Assembly: GCA_034669905.1 (NCBI GenBank)
Contig: JAXMOL010000001.1
Location: 192,001 to 256,000 of the forward strand
Source of the DNA: Candidatus Hydrogenedentota bacterium
Lineage (GTDB): Bacteria > Hydrogenedentota > Hydrogenedentia > Hydrogenedentales > JAEUWI01
Length of the DNA stretch: 64,000 nucleotides
Reading direction: 5' to 3'
Shown here piece by piece: positions 44,926-54,811 of this stretch. Each line of letters opens with the position of its first letter. The stretch's first letter is position 1. Both the position numbers and the translations under genes were made by a program. The notes under the pieces were generated by a model that made no database searches, was not told where the DNA came from, and was given only the letters and a program-made list of their open reading frames with translations.

Positions 44926-47900
44926 TCACCCCACTGCCACCAGCAGCCGCAACTCGCTGCCTTCCACCGTCACCACCTTGGCATCTCCGTCCGCCGCACC
45001 GCTCACCAGCGAATTGGCCAACACTTCCTGGGCGATATACTCGCGGAAGCCATCAATCGCCTCGTTCAACGATGCATCGTCGGTCGCATAGGTCACGGCG
45101 ATGCGCGCGTCGTAGGCGAGGTTTTGCTCTTTGCGGATGTCCTGCAGGGCGCGGACCACTTCGCGAACCAAACCCTCTTTCCGCAGTTCGTCGGTGATTT
45201 CTGTGGCGATGACCACCACCAACTGCTTGCCCTGGGCGGCGGCGAAACCTTCCTTCGGCGTGAGGCGCACGTCCACTTCATCGGCGGTGAGCACTTCCGG
45301 CTTACCATTCACTTCGATGGTGATGCCGCCATCCTGCACCTGGGCCGCAAGGGCCGCCCCATCGGCACCGGCGAGGGCCTTGCGGACCTGCTGGACGTTC
45401 TTCCCGAAGCGGGGTCCGAGGACCTTGAAGTTGGGCCGCACTTCGTAGGAAACGTATTCTTCCGGGCTGTCCGTGAAGGCCACTTCCTTGATGTTCAATT
45501 CTTCCTGGATAAGGTCGAGGTGTTTCTCGAGGGCAGCGCGCTGGTCGGCATTGGCCACGACGAGTTCGCAGAGCCCCAGGGGCTGACGCACCTTGATGTT
45601 TTCTACACGGCGGGCACTGAGTCCCAGCGTCACGGCCTCGCGGGTGAGGGCCATCTGGTCCAGCAGCCCATGGTCAATGGTGGCCCCGTCGGCTACCGGG
45701 TAGGTCGCCAGGTGGACACTGTCCGCCGCACCAGCCACGGGTTTCGCCAGGTTGCGCCACGTCACTTCTGCGAAGAAGGGCGTGAAAGGCGCGGCCAGAC
45801 GGGCCAGCTTGATGAGGCATTCGTAGAGCGTCCAATAGGCATCGGCCTTGTCTTCGCTCCAGCCACTCGCCCAGAAGCGCGCACGACTCCGGCGCACATA
45901 CCAGTTGGAGAGGCTGTCCACAAAGCCGGAAACTTCACGGGCTGCCGGGTAGGTTTCGTAGGTATCCAGGGCACCCCGGGCATCGACGATAACCCGGTCG
46001 AGCTCGTTGAGGATCCACTGATCCAACTCAGCGCGTTCGGCCACCGGGCGATAGACCGCATCGCCCCCGGTGCCCCCGGCAGGTGCGGCGGCGGGGTCGG
46101 CGAAGAGTTCTTTCAACACGGCCTGGGGCGCACTGGACGGATCAAAGCCATCCAGGTTCGCATAGATCACGAAGAAACTGTAGACGTTGTACCAGCGCAT
46201 CAACAGTTCGCGCTGGGACTCTTCCACGATGCGCTCGGAAAGGCGGCTGCTGTTCGTGGGCGGGTTCTTGGCGATAAAGCTCCAGCGCAACGCGTCGGCA
46301 CTGAACTTTTCGAAAAGGAGGCCCGGCTCGCTGTAATTCTTCAGACGCTTCGACAACTTGAGGCCGTCTTCCCCGAGGATGTGTCCGAGGCAAATGCAGT
46401 TTTTGAAGGGATGGGGCCAGGGGCCTTTTTCTTTTCCATGAACCACCGTGCTGATGGCCAGCAGGGCATAGAACCAACCCCGCGTCTGGTCAATGGCTTC
46501 ACTGATAAAGTCGGCCGGGAAGCGCTCGTTGAACTTTTCCGCAGAACCTTCCACGTGGGGATAGCCCCACTGGGCGAAGGGCATGGAGCCCGCGTCAAAC
46601 CACACGTCGATGACTTCCGTCACACGGCGCATGCGCCCTTCAGGATCCTTGGGACTCTGGAAGGTTACGGCATCGATATAGGGCTTGTGGACCTTGAGGT
46701 GCTCACTGAGTTCGGGTGTTTCGGCCTTGGCCTGCTCCCAGACCTCGGTGCCTTCGAGGCCGGGCTTGGCGAGCAACTCGTCGTAGGAGCTGATGCATTC
46801 CATGTGGCCCGTCTTGTCGCAAATCCACACGGGCAGGGGCGTACCCCAATAGCGCTCGCGGGACAGGGCCCAGTCCACGTTGTTTTCGAGGAAGTTACCA
46901 AAGCGGCCATCGCGGATGTGCTGGGGCTGCCAAGTGATCTCCTTATTATTCGCCACGAAATCGTCTTTGAACTGGGAGGTCTTGATAAACCAGCTCTTCC
47001 GCGCGTATTGGATGAGGGGATCATTCTCCGCACGGGGACAGAAGGGATAGGAGTGTTTGTATTGCTCGTGTTTAAAGAGGTGTCCCCGCTCTTTCAAGAC
47101 ACGGAGAATGCCCTTGTCCGCGGCCTTACAGAACTGGCCCGCAATGGGGCTCTGGTCGTAGGGGTCCACATCGGTGACGCGCTCGTCGAAGGTGCCATCG
47201 GGCTTCACATAACAAAGGAATCCAATGCCGCTTTCCTTGCAGACGCGGTAATCGTCTTCACCGAAGGCCGGGGCCATATGGACGATGCCCGTACCGGTTT
47301 CGAGGTCCACAAAATCACCCGCGATAACCATCCAGTGTTTTTCGGAAACCGCGTCGGGATTTTCCATGGCGGCCGGGGTGCCGTAGTTAAAGAGGGGCTC
47401 GTAGCGCACACCCAGGAGATCGCTCCCCTTGAGCGTCTGAACAATCTCCGCCTCTTCGCCGAAATACTTGCTGACGAGGGCCTGGGCGAGAATCAGCATC
47501 TCGTGGCCGGATTCGGTCGCGTGCTTTACCACGGCGTAGTCCGTCTCGGGGCCCACGCACGCCGCGCAGTTGCTCGACAGGGTCCAGGGGGTCGTCGTCC
47601 AAATGAGGAGACCCGCGTCTTCCCCTTCCAGGTTGAGGGCTTGCTTGCCATCCTCCGTGAGGGAGAGTTTAATCGTGACCGCGGGGTCGTCCACGTCGCG
47701 GTAGCCTTCACCCACTTCGCCCGCCGAAAGGGCTGTGCCGCCCTGGGCCCACCACCACACGACCTTATGGCCCTGATAGAGGAGGCCCCGGTCGAAAAGT
47801 TGCTTCAGGGCCCACCACACACTCTCCACATAACTCTGGTGGAAGGTGACATAGGCCTCGTCCAGGTCTACCCAGAAACCAATACGGTCCGTGAGTTGTT

Positions 47901-48312
47901 CCCATTCCTGCTTATAGCGGAAGACCGACTCAATGCAGGTGCGGTTGAACTTCTCCACGCCGAATTCTTCGATGGCTTCTTTACCGCCATCGATGATACC
48001 CAGCTCTTTGCAGACCTCGATTTCCACGGGCAGTCCGTGGGTATCCCAGCCGGCTTTGCGCTCGCAGAAATTGCCCGACATAGTCTTGTAACGGGGGAAG
48101 ATGTCTTTGATGGTGCGCGTCAGGCAGTGGCCCGGGTGGGGCATCCCGTTGGCCGTGGGAGGCCCTTCGTAGAACACGAAACGGGGCGCATCTTTCCGCT
48201 GTTCCAGACTTTTTTTATAGGTCTGGTGTTCTTTCCAGAACGCGATGGTCTCCTTTTCCGCCTCGGCAAAGTTAAAGGGGGACGGGACCGGTTCAAAGGC
48301 ATCGTTAGACAT
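44926..48312 (-). CDS. ileS: Isoleucyl-tRNA synthetase, type 2 (IleRS2)
   Basis: YEGPPTANG, GWDTHGLP, WTTTPWTL, GTGIVH.APAFGEDD, DW.LSR.RYWGTP, DQTRGWF; long type-2 C-terminus. Confidence 0.96.
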   Translation of the reverse strand: MSNDAFEPVPSPFNFAEAEKETIAFWKEHQTYKKSLEQRKDAPRFVFYEGPPTANGMPHPGHCLTRTIKDIFPRYKTMSGNFCERKAGWDTHGLPVEIEVCKELGIIDGGKEAIEEFGVEKFNRTCIESVFRYKQEWEQLTDRIGFWVDLDEAYVTFHQSYVESVWWALKQLFDRGLLYQGHKVVWWWAQGGTALSAGEVGEGYRDVDDPAVTIKLSLTEDGKQALNLEGEDAGLLIWTTTPWTLSSNCAACVGPETDYAVVKHATESGHEMLILAQALVSKYFGEEAEIVQTLKGSDLLGVRYEPLFNYGTPAAMENPDAVSEKHWMVIAGDFVDLETGTGIVHMAPAFGEDDYRVCKESGIGFLCYVKPDGTFDERVTDVDPYDQSPIAGQFCKAADKGILRVLKERGHLFKHEQYKHSYPFCPRAENDPLIQYARKSWFIKTSQFKDDFVANNKEITWQPQHIRDGRFGNFLENNVDWALSRERYWGTPLPVWICDKTGHMECISSYDELLAKPGLEGTEVWEQAKAETPELSEHLKVHKPYIDAVTFQSPKDPEGRMRRVTEVIDVWFDAGSMPFAQWGYPHVEGSAEKFNERFPADFISEAIDQTRGWFYALLAISTVVHGKEKGPWPHPFKNCICLGHILGEDGLKLSKRLKNYSEPGLLFEKFSADALRWSFIAKNPPTNSSRLSERIVEESQRELLMRWYNVYSFFVIYANLDGFDPSSAPQAVLKELFADPAAAPAGGTGGDAVYRPVAERAELDQWILNELDRVIVDARGALDTYETYPAAREVSGFVDSLSNWYVRRSRARFWASGWSEDKADAYWTLYECLIKLARLAAPFTPFFAEVTWRNLAKPVAGAADSVHLATYPVADGATIDHGLLDQMALTREAVTLGLSARRVENIKVRQPLGLCELVVANADQRAALEKHLDLIQEELNIKEVAFTDSPEEYVSYEVRPNFKVLGPRFGKNVQQVRKALAGADGAALAAQVQDGGITIEVNGKPEVLTADEVDVRLTPKEGFAAAQGKQLVVVIATEITDELRKEGLVREVVRALQDIRKEQNLAYDARIAVTYATDDASLNEAIDGFREYIAQEVLANSLVSGAADGDAKVVTVEGSELRLLVAVG

Positions 48313-48828
48313 GGAGCAGGCTTCCTTCGCTAGGGGCGACGGGTTGTTGTGTTTATACCGGGAGCAATACGCACTTTCCGCCCCGAAAACAGGTTCCGGC
48401 ACCACAGAAAGGGATTAAACGGCCGAAAATGGCGTACCAAGCCCAATATGATCGCTTTTCAGGGCCAGATCATGCAACTTTTGGACGAATTTGGGGAATT
48501 GGGCGGTGTGAAGCGGGGCGATAGCGTGGCACGGTCGGGTTACTGCTATTCGTCACGGCACCATGTGGCACCGGTCACAGGGCAGGCCTTTCAATATCAT
48601 GAGCAGTCAACCAAGAAATAAAACGACAAGCCTTCGTGCCACGCGTTCCGGTATATCGCAACGTGTGTAGGGCGCAAGGCTGGGCGGTGCATGGTAGCGA
48701 TCTGAACCCTCTGTATCTCAACACGAGACCATCACGAGAGTGGAAGAGCGCGGATTGCCGCGACGAAGGCGGGAGGTGCGTGGCGTAAGTTGTGGCAATC
48801 TAATGGTGTTAGGACAATCACACGTTTT

Positions 48829-48844
48829 TGGCACGGTGCTGGCT
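48829..48844 (+). promoter_or_regulatory. sigma54 (-24/-12) promoter, cassette 1
   Basis: TGGCACGGTGCTGGCT; conserved in the second copy. Confidence 0.72.
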
Positions 48845-48940
48845 TCACACTCCCATACGCCGTGTGGCGTACGAACAATTGAACGTAAACGTCGATGAAT
48901 CCATCCGCGATTTGCAGGGAAAAGCCAGGAGGAATTTACT

Positions 48941-49075
48941 ATGAACACTATCGAACTCAACGAACTGAACCATGAAGTGACTGTCGAAGAAGCCAACAAC
49001 GTTGTCGGCGGCTACAAACTCAAGAACGTCGTGGTTTCCAGTTACAAGCTCAAAAACGTCGTTGTATCCAGTTAA
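48941..49075 (+). CDS. 44-aa double-glycine-leader peptide MNTIELNELNHEVTVEEANNVVGG|YKLKNVVVSSYKLKNVVVSS
   Basis: AGGAGG RBS; GG-leader consensus; 10-aa core duplicated with synonymous codon differences; below the ORF-track size cut-off. Confidence 0.85.
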   Translation: MNTIELNELNHEVTVEEANNVVGGYKLKNVVVSSYKLKNVVVSS

Positions 49076-49157
49076 GGTGCCTGCGGCCTGTTCGGTGGCC
49101 CGCGCCACCTGATAGTAGTCCGAGACGGCCCAATACGGATACGAGATTAACGACCAC

Positions 49158-49206
49158 AAAAACGGCTGGTGCCCCGCACATCGTGGGCGCACCGCCGTTT
49201 TTTTTT
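49158..49206 (+). terminator. Intrinsic terminator, cassette 1
   Basis: AAAACGGC-TGGTGC...GCACC-GCCGTTTTTTTTT. Confidence 0.85.
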
Positions 49207-49491
49207 GTATGGGTGGCCCGCGAATCGACAAATCGGCATTGTGCGCCTCGAATCCCGATTGGACCAAGCACCAGCCCAAAGGATGTCCCCAAGGGTCGTG
49301 CCGCACGAACCGGTATCTCGGTATCATTCGCCCCGTGCAAGGATGGGCGTTGCATAGTATCGAACTGAGGCCACCGTGTCTGAACACGAGACCATTGTAA
49401 GAATACGATACCCCGGCCTGGCCCGTCGGAGACGGGAAGTTCGCGGCGTAAGCCGCTGAATTATATGGGTGTTATGACAATCATACGTTTT

Positions 49492-49507
49492 TGGCACGGC
49501 GCTGGCG
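49492..49507 (+). promoter_or_regulatory. sigma54 (-24/-12) promoter, cassette 2
   Basis: TGGCACGGCGCTGGCG. Confidence 0.7.
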
Positions 49508-49603
49508 CTACATTCCTATACGCCGTGGGGCGTGCGAGCAATTGAACGTAAACGTCGATGAATCCATCCGCGATTTGCAGGGAAGAACCAGGAGGAATTT
49601 ACT

Positions 49604-49774
49604 ATGAACACTATCAAAATCAAAGAACTGAACCATGAAGTGACCGTTGAAGAAGCCAACAACGTCGTCGGTGGCTACAAATACAAACTCACCAACGTCG
49701 TAGTTTCCAGTTACGATACCTCCGGTCAAGCCGACGCTACTCGCCGCAACCCATCGCTCAAAACGAGTCGTTGA
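49604..49774 (+). CDS. 56-aa double-glycine-leader peptide MNTIKIKELNHEVTVEEANNVVGG|YKYKLTNVVVSSYDTSGQADATRRNPSLKTSR
   Basis: AGGAGG RBS; leader paralogous to 48941 with several synonymous changes. Confidence 0.85.
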   Translation: MNTIKIKELNHEVTVEEANNVVGGYKYKLTNVVVSSYDTSGQADATRRNPSLKTSR

Positions 49775-49808
49775 CACCGTTCAGGAGCGTAACGGGGTTA
49801 CGGATGAC

Positions 49809-49854
49809 AAGAACGGCAGGTGCCTGCACAATGTGCATGCGCCGCCGTCTTTTT
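49809..49854 (+). terminator. Intrinsic terminator, cassette 2
   Basis: ACGGCAGGTGCCTGCACAATGTGCATGCGCCGCCGTCTTTTT, homologous to the copy-1 terminator. Confidence 0.75.
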
Positions 49855-50025
49855 GTTCGGAAGAACAGACCGACGTCCGGCAACTTTGGTGGGTCTTGAT
49901 TCCTCTTGGAACTAGATCTGGGGGACTCTTTTGCCGATGGCCATTCGTATTTCAGTATCTAATTCGCAAGTTAAACCACCCCGAGATTCCAGCCGCAACC
50001 AGATAACCCCCACTCGGTGACGCCC

Positions 50026-51978
50026 TCAGGGCACCACGTGGTAGAGGTTATAGGGCTGACTTTTCAGCACGGGCTCCAACTGCAGCCTCATCTCACTCGG
50101 GGCCAGGATATAGTCAAACCCATAGGCCTCGGCGAGGACGTGCCACTCCTCTTTCGTCCGACTGGGCCAGCTGGCAAGGGGTTCCTCCGTCATATCCCCA
50201 TCCACAGGAAAGCCGTAGACATCGGCGTGCATCTTCTTGAGGCTCGGGGCCAGATAACGCAGGTAGGTCATGTGGTGAGCGGCCTGGTAGTCCGCGAAAA
50301 TCGGATGGCGGGTTTTGGCGAGCCAGGCCACGTCCCAATAGGGCGGTACAAGCATGGCATCCGACTCGCCCCGTTCGGCGAGATAATCTACCACCTCCTG
50401 CTGCAAGGGGTGGACGGGCAGCTGTTCCCGATGGGCGAGTTGGCCCACGAGGAGTTGGGCTCCCAGGGTCAGTAAGAGGATTCCCTGGTAGGCACCTACC
50501 GGCCCGGCAAGCTCGCCCAACTTCTCGAAGCGAATAAGCACCGCTGCCACGACCAATCCCGCAACCAGAGCGGCCAGCGCAAAGGGCGATAGTCCCGCGA
50601 GGAGAAAAGCGCCGCACACGGCAAAAAGCAGCGGGAGGAAGAGCGAGCGCCCGTGCACCATGCGTGCATAACCCAGGGCGGCCAAAGCACCGCCACACAG
50701 GAGCCACAGGGCCGTGTCGGGATTGTTGAAGTAGCGGGTCGCCAAGCCTTCGGGGAGTATCACTTGCCAAAGAGGACCGAGGGACACCCACAACAAGATC
50801 AGGCACACAAAGATGCGGGAAGCAAAGGGGGGCCAATCGTTGGTGCCTGGCGTCCGCGCCAGCAATCCCAGGGCCAGGGGCACCAACAGAATGGCCAGGT
50901 GATTGGTCAGGCGGTAGGGCATCCAACCCAACAGCAAGAAGGGTATCTCCCCGCCGACCACCTGATGCACCAGCCAGATGAGTCCCACAACGGTGGCGAG
51001 AATGCCCGCATAGAGCGTGACCCAGCCTCGGTCCCGTTCTCCCATGGCCTGTCCCCGCTCCAGGGCGAGGCTGCCGCCGGCCATCAACAAGACCAGCGCC
51101 ACCCCCACTCCACTTTTCCAGAAGGGATTGAGCCGGGCGAAACCGCGATGGAGATCATAGCGCTCCGTGTAGGCCGCCCAGATGGCGTGGGTATCACCCG
51201 TGGCCGCGTAGGCCCCTTCGGTGGGCAAGGGCACGTGAAGACGCGACTGGATGGCGTAGAAAATCACGCAGGGCACCAATCCCAAAGCGAAATAGCCCAA
51301 GGCCTGCACGACCCGCCTATGGTCCCGCTGATAGCAATAGATAAGCCACTGCACCCCGGCCACGGCCCCAATAACGGGTAGTTGTCCGATATGGATGGCC
51401 ACCATGAGCCCCAGGAGAAGCCAGACGGTCCGCCAGCAATCATAGAGCAACAGGGCAAAGACCAGTAGCGCGTAGCCCGTGCCGATTTGTCCGATGGCAT
51501 ACATGTGGGGCCAGGATTCGATAGGGTAGTAACTCTGCAGGCCCTGATGAATGCCCAACAAAACCAATACGACAGCGATATGGCCATACCACGTCTTTCC
51601 GGAAAAACGGGTGCCCAGCAAGAAGACCGGTACGGTGCAGAAAACAAGCTGGAGCACGTTGCGGTAGCCATTCACGAGAAGGGGCGAATCCACGAAGTGC
51701 AGCACCAGCGCCGACAGGTAGCTCTGCCCACTGAAGACATTCCGGCAATATTGATAGCAGGGATGGCCCTCGGGATAGGGCACGAGGCCCGTGATCAGGA
51801 GGGCGTGCTCATAGGTCTCTTCCCAGCGAACGCCGCGTAGTGCGACGGCGAAAAGTGAAAAAGCGACCCAGCCGAGGCTGCCATACCACAATGATCGAAA
51901 GTCGATGGACTGCTTTTCTTGTTGACGTGCCGAGGAAATAGCGATGGCTCCCGTAGTGCGTTGGAAGGAAGGCCCCAT
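50026..51978 (-). CDS. Polytopic membrane protein, possibly GT-C-like; start uncertain
   Basis: Many TM segments and a soluble C-terminal domain ending LAEAYGFDYIL. Confidence 0.6.
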   Translation of the reverse strand: MGPSFQRTTGAIAISSARQQEKQSIDFRSLWYGSLGWVAFSLFAVALRGVRWEETYEHALLITGLVPYPEGHPCYQYCRNVFSGQSYLSALVLHFVDSPLLVNGYRNVLQLVFCTVPVFLLGTRFSGKTWYGHIAVVLVLLGIHQGLQSYYPIESWPHMYAIGQIGTGYALLVFALLLYDCWRTVWLLLGLMVAIHIGQLPVIGAVAGVQWLIYCYQRDHRRVVQALGYFALGLVPCVIFYAIQSRLHVPLPTEGAYAATGDTHAIWAAYTERYDLHRGFARLNPFWKSGVGVALVLLMAGGSLALERGQAMGERDRGWVTLYAGILATVVGLIWLVHQVVGGEIPFLLLGWMPYRLTNHLAILLVPLALGLLARTPGTNDWPPFASRIFVCLILLWVSLGPLWQVILPEGLATRYFNNPDTALWLLCGGALAALGYARMVHGRSLFLPLLFAVCGAFLLAGLSPFALAALVAGLVVAAVLIRFEKLGELAGPVGAYQGILLLTLGAQLLVGQLAHREQLPVHPLQQEVVDYLAERGESDAMLVPPYWDVAWLAKTRHPIFADYQAAHHMTYLRYLAPSLKKMHADVYGFPVDGDMTEEPLASWPSRTKEEWHVLAEAYGFDYILAPSEMRLQLEPVLKSQPYNLYHVVP

Positions 51979-52060
51979 TATAGACGGGAGCACGTGCAAA
52001 TTATAGGCAGAAAAATGGGCCTTTGCAGCGCATCGGGCAGGAGCGCGGGGTAGTTGCAAT

Positions 52061-52089
52061 CTCGTTCCCAAGCGCTGCCTGGGAATGCA
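52061..52089. repeat. REP-like hairpin, same family as 44729-44757
   Basis: CTCGTTCCCAAGCGCTGCCTGGGAATGCA vs reverse complement of 44729-44757 CTCGTTCCCAAGCTCTGCTTGGGAATGCA (2 mismatches). Confidence 0.8.
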
Positions 52090-52093
52090 GCCC

Positions 52094-52543
52094 CTATAGC
52101 GCCTTTACCAGAAAAAACTTGCTGTTCCCCTGGGAATCCCAATCGGCCAACTCGCCCCTGACCACATAGCCCGCCGCCTGGTAGAATTCCGGCGCCTGAT
52201 AGGCCATCGTGTCCACATAAGCATGGCAACAACCCCGCGCCACCGCAATGGCCTCCGCCATTTCGAGAAGCGCACGGCCGATGCCCTGCCCGCGCAAGGC
52301 TTCCTCCACGGCCATGACGTCGGTCTTGAGCCACGTGAATTGGGTCGTTCCGAATAGCCCACCCACCACTGAGCCTTTGCCGTCATAGGCAAGCAATTGG
52401 ATAGGTACCGCCTCGTTCTCTGTGCGCTCCCGGGCTTCCCAGAACGCCGGGTTGGCCCGTTGGTTGTGGTTGCGAAGGATCGTAAAGACCGTTTCCTGGT
52501 CGGCGTCGTGCATGTCATCGATGGATTCAATCTGAAAACGCAT
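52094..52543 (-). CDS. GNAT family N-acetyltransferase
   Basis: V.EALRGQGIGRALL, DTMAYQAPEFY..AGY. Confidence 0.9.
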   Translation of the reverse strand: MRFQIESIDDMHDADQETVFTILRNHNQRANPAFWEARERTENEAVPIQLLAYDGKGSVVGGLFGTTQFTWLKTDVMAVEEALRGQGIGRALLEMAEAIAVARGCCHAYVDTMAYQAPEFYQAAGYVVRGELADWDSQGNSKFFLVKAL

Positions 52544-52681
52544 GGTGTATCGATTCCCTTTTTACGCGACCGCCCTGCGTCGCATGACTCCATTGTAGTC
52601 ACGGCACGGGGCAAATCACAGGGGCGGCGGGCGCGGTGGCTATGCTATAGTGCCGGGCGTTACCGGTATGAAGGAATCTGC

Positions 52682-54811
52682 ATGGACGCACCCGAAGAAT
52701 CGAATCCCCCCACCGCCCGCTGGGCCACCCTACGTGGCTGGTTCCGCCCGTGCGTGCCCGATGTTCGTCGTGCCCTGGCCCTCTTCGGGATGGCCTTTGT
52801 TATGGGGGTCGTCTATGTAAGCACCTGGGGCGGCCCACCCGAATTCTGGCAGCAGATCTTCGGCCCCTCGGTCATGATGGCCTGTGGTGAAGGCTTCACC
52901 AATCCCCACCTCGACGACGTGCCGGGCCTCGAAGACTTCCTCTATCTACGCGCCGAGTCCTTCCCCTGTGAAAACATCCCCGCCGACGTCCGGCGCTTGC
53001 CGTCCGACACGAGTGCGATGGATTACGATACGGTCCAGGAATTCCACCCCGAGCCCCAATTCAAGGGGTGGACCCAGTGGCAGCGTTTTCACCGCTATCT
53101 CTTGATGAGCGTGGCCCTGTGTTTCTACCTCTTCGGCGTGGCGTGGCAGTCCCTCGTGCCCCTCTATGGCCTCCTCTACGGCCTCACCAACGCCTTGGGC
53201 TATGGCCTCTTTCGGCTGGCCATGGGCAGGCGCTGGGCGACCGGCTTTGCCCTCCTCCTCATGACCTCGCCGGTGCATTTGCAGCAACTCCCCCAGCTCC
53301 GGGACTACAGCAAGGCCCCCTTCTTCTTCCTGATCATGCTGATTATGGGTTGCTTACTGACACGCCCCTTGCCCCTCCGCCTTCAGGTGCCCCTGGCGGC
53401 AATGGCGGGATTCGTGGGGGGACTCGGCCTGGGCTTCCGTCAGGATATTGCCTTTGCGGCCGCCGTCTTCTGCCTCTTGGTGGCCCTCTTTTCGCCGGGG
53501 CATATCAAGAAAACGTGGTGGCGACGGGGCCTGATTATCACCGTATTCTTGGCAGCCGTTGCCGTGCTGGGAACGCCCATCGTGCGGGTGCTTTCCGGCG
53601 TCAACAACTCCACCCACGACACGATTATCGGCTTCACCCACTATTGTGACGAGCGCCTGGGCGTGGAAGCTCCGCTCTATGATTTCGGCGACCCCTTTCT
53701 CGATGAATACGTGCGCGCTATCCTCATGGGCTATGCCCACCGCACCGAAGGGCGCACCGAAGTTTTCCGCCACTACTCGCCGGACTATGATGCCGCCGGA
53801 AAAGCCTACTTTCGCGACATCGCCACCACCTTCCCCGCCGATCTCATCGTGCGCGGCTACGCCTCGGTGCTCCGCATCGTCGACGAGCTCCAGATCAGCT
53901 CCGCCAACAACGCGCCCCGGGGTATCACGAATCAGTTCGTGGCCCGACTCTATCAGTGGCGACAGGCCCTCCTCGATGGCATACCCGGCGGCGGACGTTA
54001 TTACGTGGCCGCCATGCTGCTGGTGCTGGGCGCGATCAATCCCCGACTGGCCCTCGCCCTCTTTATCGCCATCATGATACTGGCGGGCTATCCGGCCCTG
54101 CGCTTCAGCGAGCGTCACGCCTTCCACATGGAAATCGTGTCTCTATTTGCCCTGGGTTTTCTCCTCCACGGCCTCTATCTCGCAGCGACCACGGGCTGGA
54201 AACGACGTCATGAATTCACCTGGACGGCGGGCCTCCATGCGACCAAGGGCTACGTCCTCCGTGGTGCGGTCGTCGCCACCACCCTGGTCGCGCTCTTGCT
54301 GGTTCCCCTCTACACCGCACGACTCTGGCAATCCCGCCAGGTACCGCCCCTCCTCGCCGCTTACGCCCAGGCCGAGCGGGAACTCGTGCGGACGGAAGTG
54401 ACCCCGGTAGACGACACGACCGTGCAGATGGCCCTCCCCACCCTGGTCTCCCGGATGGGAGACGAAGGTCCCCTTCCCATGTATACCGAAGTGCTGGTCC
54501 TGGAATTTGCGCCGGGGGACACAGCGGTACCTGTCGATTTCACCTACGAAGCCGATCACCCCAACTTCTTGTTCAATCGGAGTATGACCGTGCCTGCCCG
54601 TTCGCAGGACACGGAACCCACCCATCTCTACTATCCCCTCTACCACGGATTGGACGCGCGCTTTCAGGCCATTCGGCTTTCGAAGGCGGGACATGAACGT
54701 CTTCGGGGAGTCTATCGGCTCGTGGATCTCAGCGACCGGGGCATCTTGCTCAATGCCGTCTTGCCACCGGACTGGGAACGCGGCCCCTTCTACCAGAAGT
54801 TTTCACGATAA
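52682..54811 (+). CDS. Polytopic membrane protein, possibly GT-C-like
   Basis: ATG after GAAGGA; alternating TM and periplasmic segments; RDYSKAPF, GFRQD. Confidence 0.6.
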   Translation: MDAPEESNPPTARWATLRGWFRPCVPDVRRALALFGMAFVMGVVYVSTWGGPPEFWQQIFGPSVMMACGEGFTNPHLDDVPGLEDFLYLRAESFPCENIPADVRRLPSDTSAMDYDTVQEFHPEPQFKGWTQWQRFHRYLLMSVALCFYLFGVAWQSLVPLYGLLYGLTNALGYGLFRLAMGRRWATGFALLLMTSPVHLQQLPQLRDYSKAPFFFLIMLIMGCLLTRPLPLRLQVPLAAMAGFVGGLGLGFRQDIAFAAAVFCLLVALFSPGHIKKTWWRRGLIITVFLAAVAVLGTPIVRVLSGVNNSTHDTIIGFTHYCDERLGVEAPLYDFGDPFLDEYVRAILMGYAHRTEGRTEVFRHYSPDYDAAGKAYFRDIATTFPADLIVRGYASVLRIVDELQISSANNAPRGITNQFVARLYQWRQALLDGIPGGGRYYVAAMLLVLGAINPRLALALFIAIMILAGYPALRFSERHAFHMEIVSLFALGFLLHGLYLAATTGWKRRHEFTWTAGLHATKGYVLRGAVVATTLVALLLVPLYTARLWQSRQVPPLLAAYAQAERELVRTEVTPVDDTTVQMALPTLVSRMGDEGPLPMYTEVLVLEFAPGDTAVPVDFTYEADHPNFLFNRSMTVPARSQDTEPTHLYYPLYHGLDARFQAIRLSKAGHERLRGVYRLVDLSDRGILLNAVLPPDWERGPFYQKFSR

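Follow-up and report, generated by a model that had tools for sequence, protein, structure and literature searches.

Class II bacteriocins, microcins, and ComC-type pheromones are short peptides with a double-glycine leader, exported by transporters that carry a C39 peptidase domain. A short Gly-Gly leader, a C39 transporter, and an HlyD-type adaptor also occur in a bacterium of the phylum Hydrogenedentota (assembly GCA_034669905.1), in which a stretch of 64,000 nucleotides from contig JAXMOL010000001.1 (hereafter, the window) carries two tandem cassettes spaced 663 bp start to start. Each cassette encodes one double-glycine peptide, from open reading frame (ORF) A (48941–49075, 44 amino acids) and ORF B (49604–49774, 56 amino acids). 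However, compared with the known C39-exported peptides, the cores here read as copies of segments of Hcp, of type VI secretion, and of DUF1559 pilin-like proteins, and the window genes stand alone in sigma-54-type cassettes, far from the transporter. Furthermore, no immunity gene was seen, and no curated leader model was reached by the window peptides.

The cyanobacterial group I and group II bacteriocin clusters and HetC of Nostoc PCC 7120 utilize a long-type CAP_ED-C39 ATP-binding cassette (ABC) transporter together with HlyD and a SurA-like protein, according to the consulted parts of two reports (PMC3140520, PMC10986499). As far as these parts describe them, the domain order is the same as here, with a cNMP-type domain before C39, the length of the transporter is similar (1044 amino acids against 1039 here), and HlyD and an accessory gene of approximately 320 amino acids adjoin the transporter in both cases. 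This domain order is also present in loci of three other lineages. Within the same parts, the differences lie in the two cNMP domains found here, the non-cyanobacterial host, and the accessory protein, for which Pfam returned no rotamase domain here. The substrate of HetC is stated there to be unknown (PMC10986499), and the group I clusters average 0.35 precursors, whereas precursors are evident here.

The tentative proposal of this study is that the sigma-54 cassettes yield Hcp-strand peptides that would be cleaved and exported by a HetC-type C39 transporter and would act by mimicry on other cells, a reading we hold to be possible, if short of probable. A full-text literature search, with subscription journals outside its coverage, returned no description of Hcp- or DUF1559-derived double-glycine peptides, and the Hcp-strand peptide family is, as far as searched, new to print.

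Likeness of the peptide cores to Hcp

T6SS_HCP is the top Pfam match of ORF B (E 0.021, 15.6 bits, profile positions 78–111 of 129), and no T6SS_HCP match was returned by Pfam for ORF A. The same family ranks first for three of the six members of this core class, namely ORF B, its ortholog in a congener (E 0.056, positions 84–110), and the hybrid peptide P0039 (E 0.19, positions 90–108), all below the family cut-off. In the hhalign comparison of the class-core alignment with 14 Hcp sequences of the phylum, the score was 27.3 (P 5.3e-5) over residues 101–119 of the Hcp of this genome (FRITLTNSIIASINTSGSD), and among 200 column shuffles none scored as high (mean 8.7, standard deviation 1.8, maximum 15.9). 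In a second run only core residues 25–44 aligned (P 3.3e-4), to Hcp 101–120; the Hcp alignments behind these comparisons are shallow, with 14 and 11 sequences, and the homolog search with the Hcp of this genome gave two matches.

In addition, the profile of the six class members was searched against 1.84 billion cluster representatives and produced 63 matches at E <= 0.001. About 45 of these are small double-glycine peptides with the window type of core. The remaining matches, about 18 proteins of more than 130 amino acids, are large proteins that are matched repeatedly and only in the core part of the profile; all eight that were scanned contain four to six T6SS_HCP stretches, with E-values from 1e-89 to 1e-213. 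Small relatives whose cores extend from the late strand into the next strand match T6SS_HCP directly (E 3.7e-10 for P0134, and 2.5e-5, 8.5e-5, and 6.7e-4 for others). The preliminary description of the window had likened the core to a strand of Hcp; the likeness exceeds the shuffled controls and was recovered by a profile search without bias toward Hcp.

Among the large proteins, P0125, P0127–P0130, P0137, and P0140 are 1048–1442 amino acids long and contain six tandem T6SS_HCP stretches apiece. Some six-Hcp proteins also carry the 'Planctomycete extracellular' N-terminal motif, a dockerin, or RTX and cadherin-like domains. The Hcp ring is built of six subunits, and these chains would equal one Hcp ring in one polypeptide, apparently made for export.

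Other searches were less informative for the window peptides. A phmmer search of ORF B against solved structures found nothing at E <= 10. The only Pfam match for the leader of the window peptides was L_biotic_typeA (E 0.13), and NCBIfam gave no match for either peptide. The Atlas leads for ORF B (ComC, type-A lantibiotic, and GRASP target) are weak, with scores below 0.9.

The matched segment of Hcp is what we take to be a late strand of the protein. Compared with Hcp (TssD, T6SS_HCP), whose domain spans about 130–160 residues, the cores are only 20–32 residues long and follow an export leader; while the window core corresponds to the segment around residues 101–120, sister peptides match profile positions 1–30 and 107–129. 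Because of their length, the cores are unable to form a barrel or a ring alone. Judged by sequence, the window cores are best described as copies of one conserved late Hcp strand and not as members of the Hcp family.

The peptide family within and beyond the genome

The host genome comprises 7.44 Mb in 102 contigs, of which contig C1 contains the window. A hidden Markov model of the leader, run over all small frames, identified 11 genes at five loci, with two genes in the window, three on contig C6, one on C28, one on C3, and four on C47/C38, where one operon is split over contig ends. The assembly break lies inside a tandem array, in which C47:63321-63819 runs into the reverse strand of C38:80855-81366; in the joined array, four near-identical peptide genes share a single sigma-54 promoter in front of them. 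The leader comprises 24 residues and ends in VVGG, and M1, V21, G23, and G24 are invariant in all 11 members. The window genes are outliers of this family; the other cores read as copies of the Hcp N-terminus or of the DUF1559 pilin-like helix; one sister gene contains three core units. Both kinds of core, the Hcp type and the pilin type, are thus found in one genome under sigma-54-type promoters, with one activator adjoining the main locus.

The satellite cassettes have housekeeping neighbours (ArgJ, KARI, DNA polymerase III delta, and isoleucyl-tRNA synthetase), and no partner gene is shared among their neighbourhoods. A kinase gene (L008:10487-12001) is situated 4.6 kb from the C28 gene, a possible sensing link. 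A further small frame (L006:6522-6800, minus strand) has a start like a Gly-Gly leader and a repeated core rich in Arg, Ile, and Gly. It adjoins a 350-amino-acid ORF without a Pfam match (L006:5446-6498, minus strand), whose C-terminal Cys motif may resemble that of enzymes that modify guanidino groups.

A search with the 11-member alignment found 153 proteins of 24–130 amino acids at E <= 0.01, of which 120 are listed and form the basis of the family-level counts. Conserved homologs of the 24-residue leaders, whose absence would have spoken against the preliminary description, are accordingly available at several levels: 11 genes in the genome, the congener ortholog, these 153 proteins, and, for the class of the window peptides, the 63 cluster representatives. 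T6SS_HCP is matched at E <= 0.01 by 13 of the 120 listed homologs (seven over the cut-off), of which 11 match profile positions 1–30 and two match positions 107/112–129. DUF1559 (SBP_bac_10) is matched by five (four over the cut-off), with four at positions 1–28 and one at 240–260, and Nif11-type leaders occur in four. Classing by short motifs, which were defined after the sequences had been seen, assigned 86 of the 120 to the Hcp type and 39 to the DUF1559 type, including six with both in one core, and one to neither. The late strand of the window is rare, with five of the 120. A profile of 23 members of the N-terminal type aligns with residues 3–36 of the Hcp of this genome (P 2.8e-5), and P0135 joins a DUF1559 helix and another Hcp strand to two copies of the window strand in one chain. 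The cores seem to be assembled, in free combination, from short stretches copied from the best-conserved parts of Hcp and DUF1559.

Within the phylum, the peptides were found in 10 of 135 genomes, all of one family, and in seven of the eight congeners of the window genome, with 3–11 genes each. In the congener G069, a single cassette occupies the matching site flanked by the isoleucyl-tRNA synthetase gene, and the box, the leader RNA (its second hairpin lengthened by a 20-nt insertion), the leader, and the core are kept. The G069 core, YRYKLKDVIVTSYSVNGSSGATRG, differs from that of ORF B by seven synonymous and 12 mostly conservative changes. Hcp is encoded in 15 of the 135 genomes, including nine of the ten peptide bearers, the tenth being 60% complete; these bearers are all close kin. 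The window genome itself has one Hcp, encoded in a type VI locus, and no fewer than 46 DUF1559 genes.

Relatives of the peptides exist in at least three further phyla. Outside Hydrogenedentota, a narrow single-pattern search for one sub-class found loci in Acidobacteriota, in Rhodanobacteraceae, and in a Xanthomonas metagenome-assembled genome, in which the peptide genes adjoin an ABC transporter with two cNMP domains and C39, HlyD, and an unnamed protein of about 320 amino acids. The N-terminal Hcp motif is near-identical in Hydrogenedentota, Acidobacteriota, and Gammaproteobacteria. At E <= 0.001, no Hcp was found in four of the five producer genomes of other phyla, the completeness of these four not being established. 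Ser/Thr kinases fused to PD40/WD40-type propellers adjoin the peptide genes in Rhodanobacteraceae and Blastocatellia loci (L049:2705-5494, L050:8171-11146, and L051:1098-4064).

Architecture of the cassettes and the candidate sigma-54 regulon

The two cassettes (Table 1) were recovered by a repeat search as a direct repeat of 300 nt (48674–48973 and 49337–49636) with 81% identity at a spacing of 663 nt. Alignment of the units extends the homology from approximately 48634/49297 through the terminators. The coding unit of the core itself is a 33-nt repeat present in three copies (starting at 49013, 49043, and 49682). In both units, the AGGAGG motif is located 8 nt upstream of the ATG. Taken together, box and leader RNA agree between the units at 101 of 112 positions.

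Table 1. Positions of the cassette features within the window
Feature	Position	Strand	Remarks
Unit A upstream region	48634–48828	+	Homologous to 49297–49491; GTATC at -116 from the box; candidate for activator binding
Unit A sigma-54-type box	48829–48844	+	TGGCACGGTGCTGGCT; TGGCAC-N5-TGGCT, GG-N10-GC; 112 nt before ATG
Unit A leader RNA	48845–48940	+	Two small hairpins; AGGAGG at 48927–48932
ORF A leader	48941–49012	+	MNTIELNELNHEVTVEEANNVVGG; 24 codons, double-glycine
ORF A core	49013–49075	+	YKLKNVVVSS twice, then stop
Unit A intrinsic terminator	49158–49206	+	Hairpin, then U run
Unit B upstream region	49297–49491	+	GTATCG (49357) and CGATAC (49406); candidate activator sites
Unit B sigma-54-type box	49492–49507	+	TGGCACGGCGCTGGCG; TGGCAC-N5-TGGCG, GG-N10-GC; 112 nt before ATG
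Unit B leader RNA	49508–49603	+	AGGAGG at 49590–49595
ORF B leader	49604–49675	+	MNTIKIKELNHEVTVEEANNVVGG; 24 codons, double-glycine
ORF B core	49676–49774	+	YKYKLTNVVVSSYDTSGQADATRRNPSLKTSR, then stop; residues 25–44 align to Hcp 101–120 of this genome
Unit B intrinsic terminator	49807–49857	+	Hairpin, then U run

Both terminators fold stably. For terminator A (49155–49212), the free energy is -30.4 kcal/mol (z -4.86), and none of 200 shuffles folds as well; for terminator B (49806–49860), it is -27.9 kcal/mol (z -3.49), with two of 200 shuffles as good. Folding was used here because a simple consensus scan listed neither terminator and returned sites no more numerous than in shuffles. The unit plan given in the preliminary description, with a sigma-54 box, a near-identical 5' untranslated region, AGGAGG, a short ORF, and a terminator in each of two units of about 663 bp, is borne out by the repeat search, the alignment, and the folding.

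The codon changes also agree with that description. The two core repeats of ORF A differ in four of ten codons, all of them synonymous with no non-synonymous change, and the leaders of ORF A and ORF B show four synonymous and three non-synonymous differences. Since these changes are largely synonymous, the plus-strand frames appear to be read and kept by selection, which argues for purifying selection on the peptides. Antisense ORFs across the cassettes (180 and 89 amino acids) were considered and rejected, because neither is conserved from one unit to the other, and it is in the plus-strand frames that the changes are synonymous.

The leader RNA is conserved more strongly than the coding part, and it is also kept in the congener except for the insertion in its second hairpin (L024:1524-1636). 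Its folds are no better than those of shuffles (z -1.1, -0.5, and -1.7). Rfam returned no family at E <= 1 over 47500–51000, which sets the conserved leader RNA apart from the known riboswitches. A 1549-nt contig of a public run covers 48914–50100 with zero differences, and it may stem from the source sample of the window itself.

The cassettes are flanked by two minus-strand genes, one for isoleucyl-tRNA synthetase and the other for an unnamed membrane protein. Polytopic-looking proteins of 681 and 804 amino acids, without a Pfam family at E <= 1e-5, are encoded beside the cassettes at window positions 50029–52071 (minus strand) and 52397–54808 (plus strand).

The promoters fit the sigma-54 type in that GG-N10-GC is found at a fitting distance, rpoN is present in the genome, and an activator adjoins the main locus. 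The consensus of the -12 element is TTGC, and both window boxes read TGGC, one base off. Six of the seven transcription units of the family have such a box 53–140 nt before the ATG (five of six if the duplicated window units are taken as one), against 0.006 expected per unit; this expectation is derived from a loose box pattern with 884 occurrences in 14.9 million oriented genome positions, taken per upstream window of 100 nt. The seventh unit, on C3, has a sigma-70-like TTGCAA-17-TATAAT. Among 34 peptide genes in the loci of relatives, several of these loci being duplicates, 11 have such a box no more than 220 nt away, and most of the 11 open an operon.

GTATCG/CGATAC is the top enriched hexamer of the 210-nt regions that precede the six boxes, with eight occurrences in five of the six regions against 0.80 expected, situated 84–135 nt before the box; having been picked post hoc, it is a candidate binding site. 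The scattered cassettes form one candidate sigma-54 regulon. Because the hexamer is post hoc and the genome encodes 25 sigma-54 activators, control of this regulon by the activator on C6 is a candidate assignment. The hcp gene of this genome has no sigma-54 box in its upstream region, and co-transcriptional coupling of the peptides with hcp was rejected for that reason.

Export, possible targets, and rival explanations

On contig C6, three of the peptide genes are found with a sigma-54 activator (Sigma54_activat 1.4e-59, HTH_8), HlyD (HlyD_3 1.6e-18), and an ABC transporter of 1039 amino acids. The transporter contains, in order, two cNMP_binding stretches (1.5e-49), Peptidase_C39 (5.2e-38), ABC_membrane, and ABC_tran. 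Its C39 domain possesses the DCG Cys338 and His411, and the Walker and signature motifs are present; the catalytic counterparts given for HetC in the consulted part of its report are C347 and H420 (PMC10986499). The genome therefore encodes a candidate cognate C39 transporter with intact catalytic residues and a membrane-fusion protein, both non-adjacent to the window. This accords with the earlier expectation that the cassettes, which have no transporter beside them, would depend on partners in trans, and export in trans by the C6 transporter is plausible. A second Peptidase_C39 match (C24:50182-50577, E 2.9e-14) lies in an open frame of 297 amino acids without a full ABC transporter.

The 326-amino-acid neighbour of the C6 transporter has no Pfam match and a partial match to TIGR04500 ('putative peptide maturation system protein'; E 6e-13, 48.8 bits against a cut-off of 180). 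Its AlphaFold2 model is unusable, with a predicted local distance difference test value of 41.4. The C6 activator probably starts just after the preceding gene and is thus without a sensor domain. Two Cys-rich paralogs, 379 and 408 amino acids long, 44% identical, and without a Pfam family (L006:7568-8707 and L009:4112-5335, both plus strand), directly precede the sigma-54 activator and the C3 peptide gene, respectively. They belong to unnamed Atlas clusters that are commonest in Myxococcota, with a weak lead to YkgJ CxxCxxCC (0.82), and may either regulate the sensor-less activator or act as maturases.

In the proposed mechanism, the C6 activator would open the sigma-54 promoters of the scattered cassettes via common GTATCG-like upstream sites. 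The cytoplasmic C39 domain would then cut the precursors after Gly24, and the transporter, HlyD, and some outer-membrane channel would release peptides of 20 residues (two strands) and 32 residues (strand and loop). The cNMP domains may gate this export; in HetC, the cNMP-type domain binds ppGpp according to the consulted part of its report (PMC10986499). Outside the producer, the peptides would mimic buried Hcp segments and, in other cells, attach to structures built of Hcp or to the partners of such structures. Possible targets would be the Hcp of rivals while it folds or assembles into rings and tubes, multi-Hcp proteins that are secreted, or segment-binding proteins. Mimicry is favoured because the copies are taken from those parts of Hcp and of DUF1559 pilin-like proteins that are buried and best conserved, because they are near-unchanged across phyla, and because they are strung as independent short linear modules. 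Since four of the five producer genomes outside the phylum show no Hcp, the peptides probably act on other cells. A broader version holds that several phyla secrete tiled copies of the buried and best-conserved segments of Hcp and DUF1559, either as dominant-negative decoys against the type VI machines and pili of rivals or as alarm epitopes of the flg22 type, and that in the window genome the full set makes up one sigma-54 regulon with a HetC-type exporter; this version is a serious but doubtful one.

Several points weigh against mimicry on other cells. The T6SS_HCP score of ORF B lies below the family cut-off of 23.5 bits. The four Hcp-free genomes are of uncertain completeness, and the window genome has its own Hcp and DUF1559 genes, so a role on its own machines is possible. 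The transporter is situated on a different contig from the cassettes, and cleavage and export are predicted; similarly, the C6 activator was chosen among 25 from its adjacency and the post-hoc hexamer. In addition, type VI Hcp is cytoplasmic, and an exported peptide would need a way in; given this topology, exported Hcp-domain proteins or incoming tubes are alternative targets. Furthermore, modification of the peptides by the unnamed proteins that are conserved next to the transporter and the peptide genes is conceivable.

Other roles for the same exported peptides have to be weighed. They may be signals or alarms, with a receptor that detects Hcp or pilin fragments for kin warning or density sensing, although this is unlikely; the likeness of the cores to Hcp would then stem from a receptor that had evolved to recognise Hcp debris. 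The double-glycine peptides of C39 transporters are classic pheromones, the regulon has an activator of its own, and the copied segments are short, linear, and freely combinable, with at least six hybrids among the 120 listed homologs. HetC has itself been proposed to export a signalling peptide, as stated in the consulted part of its report (PMC10986499). Ser/Thr kinases fused to PD40 propellers adjoin peptide genes in three of eight loci annotated outside the genome (L049, L050, and L051, the last two from one genome), and in the window genome a PP2C phosphatase gene (L010:3763-4692) abuts the four-gene peptide operon; however, kinases are common in such genomes, which makes adjacency weak, and the peptide loci of this genome show no conserved receptor. 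As a rule, pheromones diverge from lineage to lineage, whereas the N-terminal Hcp motif is near-constant across the three groups named above. Rather unlikely, too, is an unmodified class II microcin-type bacteriocin that kills relatives through a membrane target, for which the Hcp likeness would be a record of the raw material. Leader, C39 ABC transporter, and HlyD are its standard export set, two sister peptides have weak NCBIfam matches to bacteriocin-type leaders, and both window cores are net positive on inspection of the translations. Yet no immunity-type small membrane gene adjoins the cassettes, and neither the cross-phylum conservation nor the tiling of Hcp and DUF1559 motifs is expected from a likeness that is only historical.

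It is improbable that the peptides regulate, perhaps in the periplasm, the type VI tube or the DUF1559 pseudopili of the producer. The presence of these genes in the window genome and of Hcp in nine of the ten bearers of the phylum is in favour of such a role, although the count is weak among close kin. However, four of five producers elsewhere have no detected Hcp, the hcp of this genome lacks the sigma-54 box, and the cores are nearer to the general Hcp profile than to the Hcp of this genome (35–37% identity over the aligned strand). HlyD-type adaptors export past both membranes, and HlyD here suggests the same. Quite improbable is a precursor of a ribosomally synthesised and post-translationally modified peptide (RiPP), or a self-assembling, amyloid-like fibre subunit, in which the Val/Ser-rich strand would be cross-linked or stacked. 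The repeated core units (two in ORF A, three in the sister gene), the Nif11-type leaders, the partial TIGR04500 match of the transporter neighbour, and the Cys-rich paralogs beside peptide genes speak for it, but Pfam scans of the window flanks, the C6 locus, and the satellite loci found no LanM, YcaO, radical SAM, or ATP-grasp family, the cores are without Cys, and sister peptides have pilin-helix cores, which are unlike strands. Of the roles listed in the preliminary description (fibre, beta-augmentation mimic or inhibitor, and orphan RiPP), a mimic is the one towards which the evidence leans, ahead of a RiPP or an amyloid. That the cassettes are decaying or silent, unexpressed duplicates is suggested by their position alone between housekeeping genes; this is very improbable, as both copies and the congener ortholog have an undamaged box, ribosome site, frame, and terminator, and the changes between core repeats are all synonymous.

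The window contributes the sigma-54 cassette form with its candidate regulon, the occurrence of both core kinds together, the rare late-strand class, and the profile link to the six-Hcp secreted proteins. Leader, promoter type, and upstream motif tie scattered small genes, which ordinary annotation would miss, to one candidate regulon, and the Hcp-derived and pilin-derived kinds are joined in one genome and, via hybrids, in single peptides. If mimicry is true, the peptides would be natural secreted inhibitors or signals against type VI secretion and pilus-like machines, of which none was found in the searched literature, and they would be short peptides ready for tests against Hcp assembly. 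Meanwhile, the HetC-type C39 exporters with cNMP domains gain clear candidate cargos, and the decoy or alarm reading, if true, would name the long-sought kind of cargo of HetC-type transporters.

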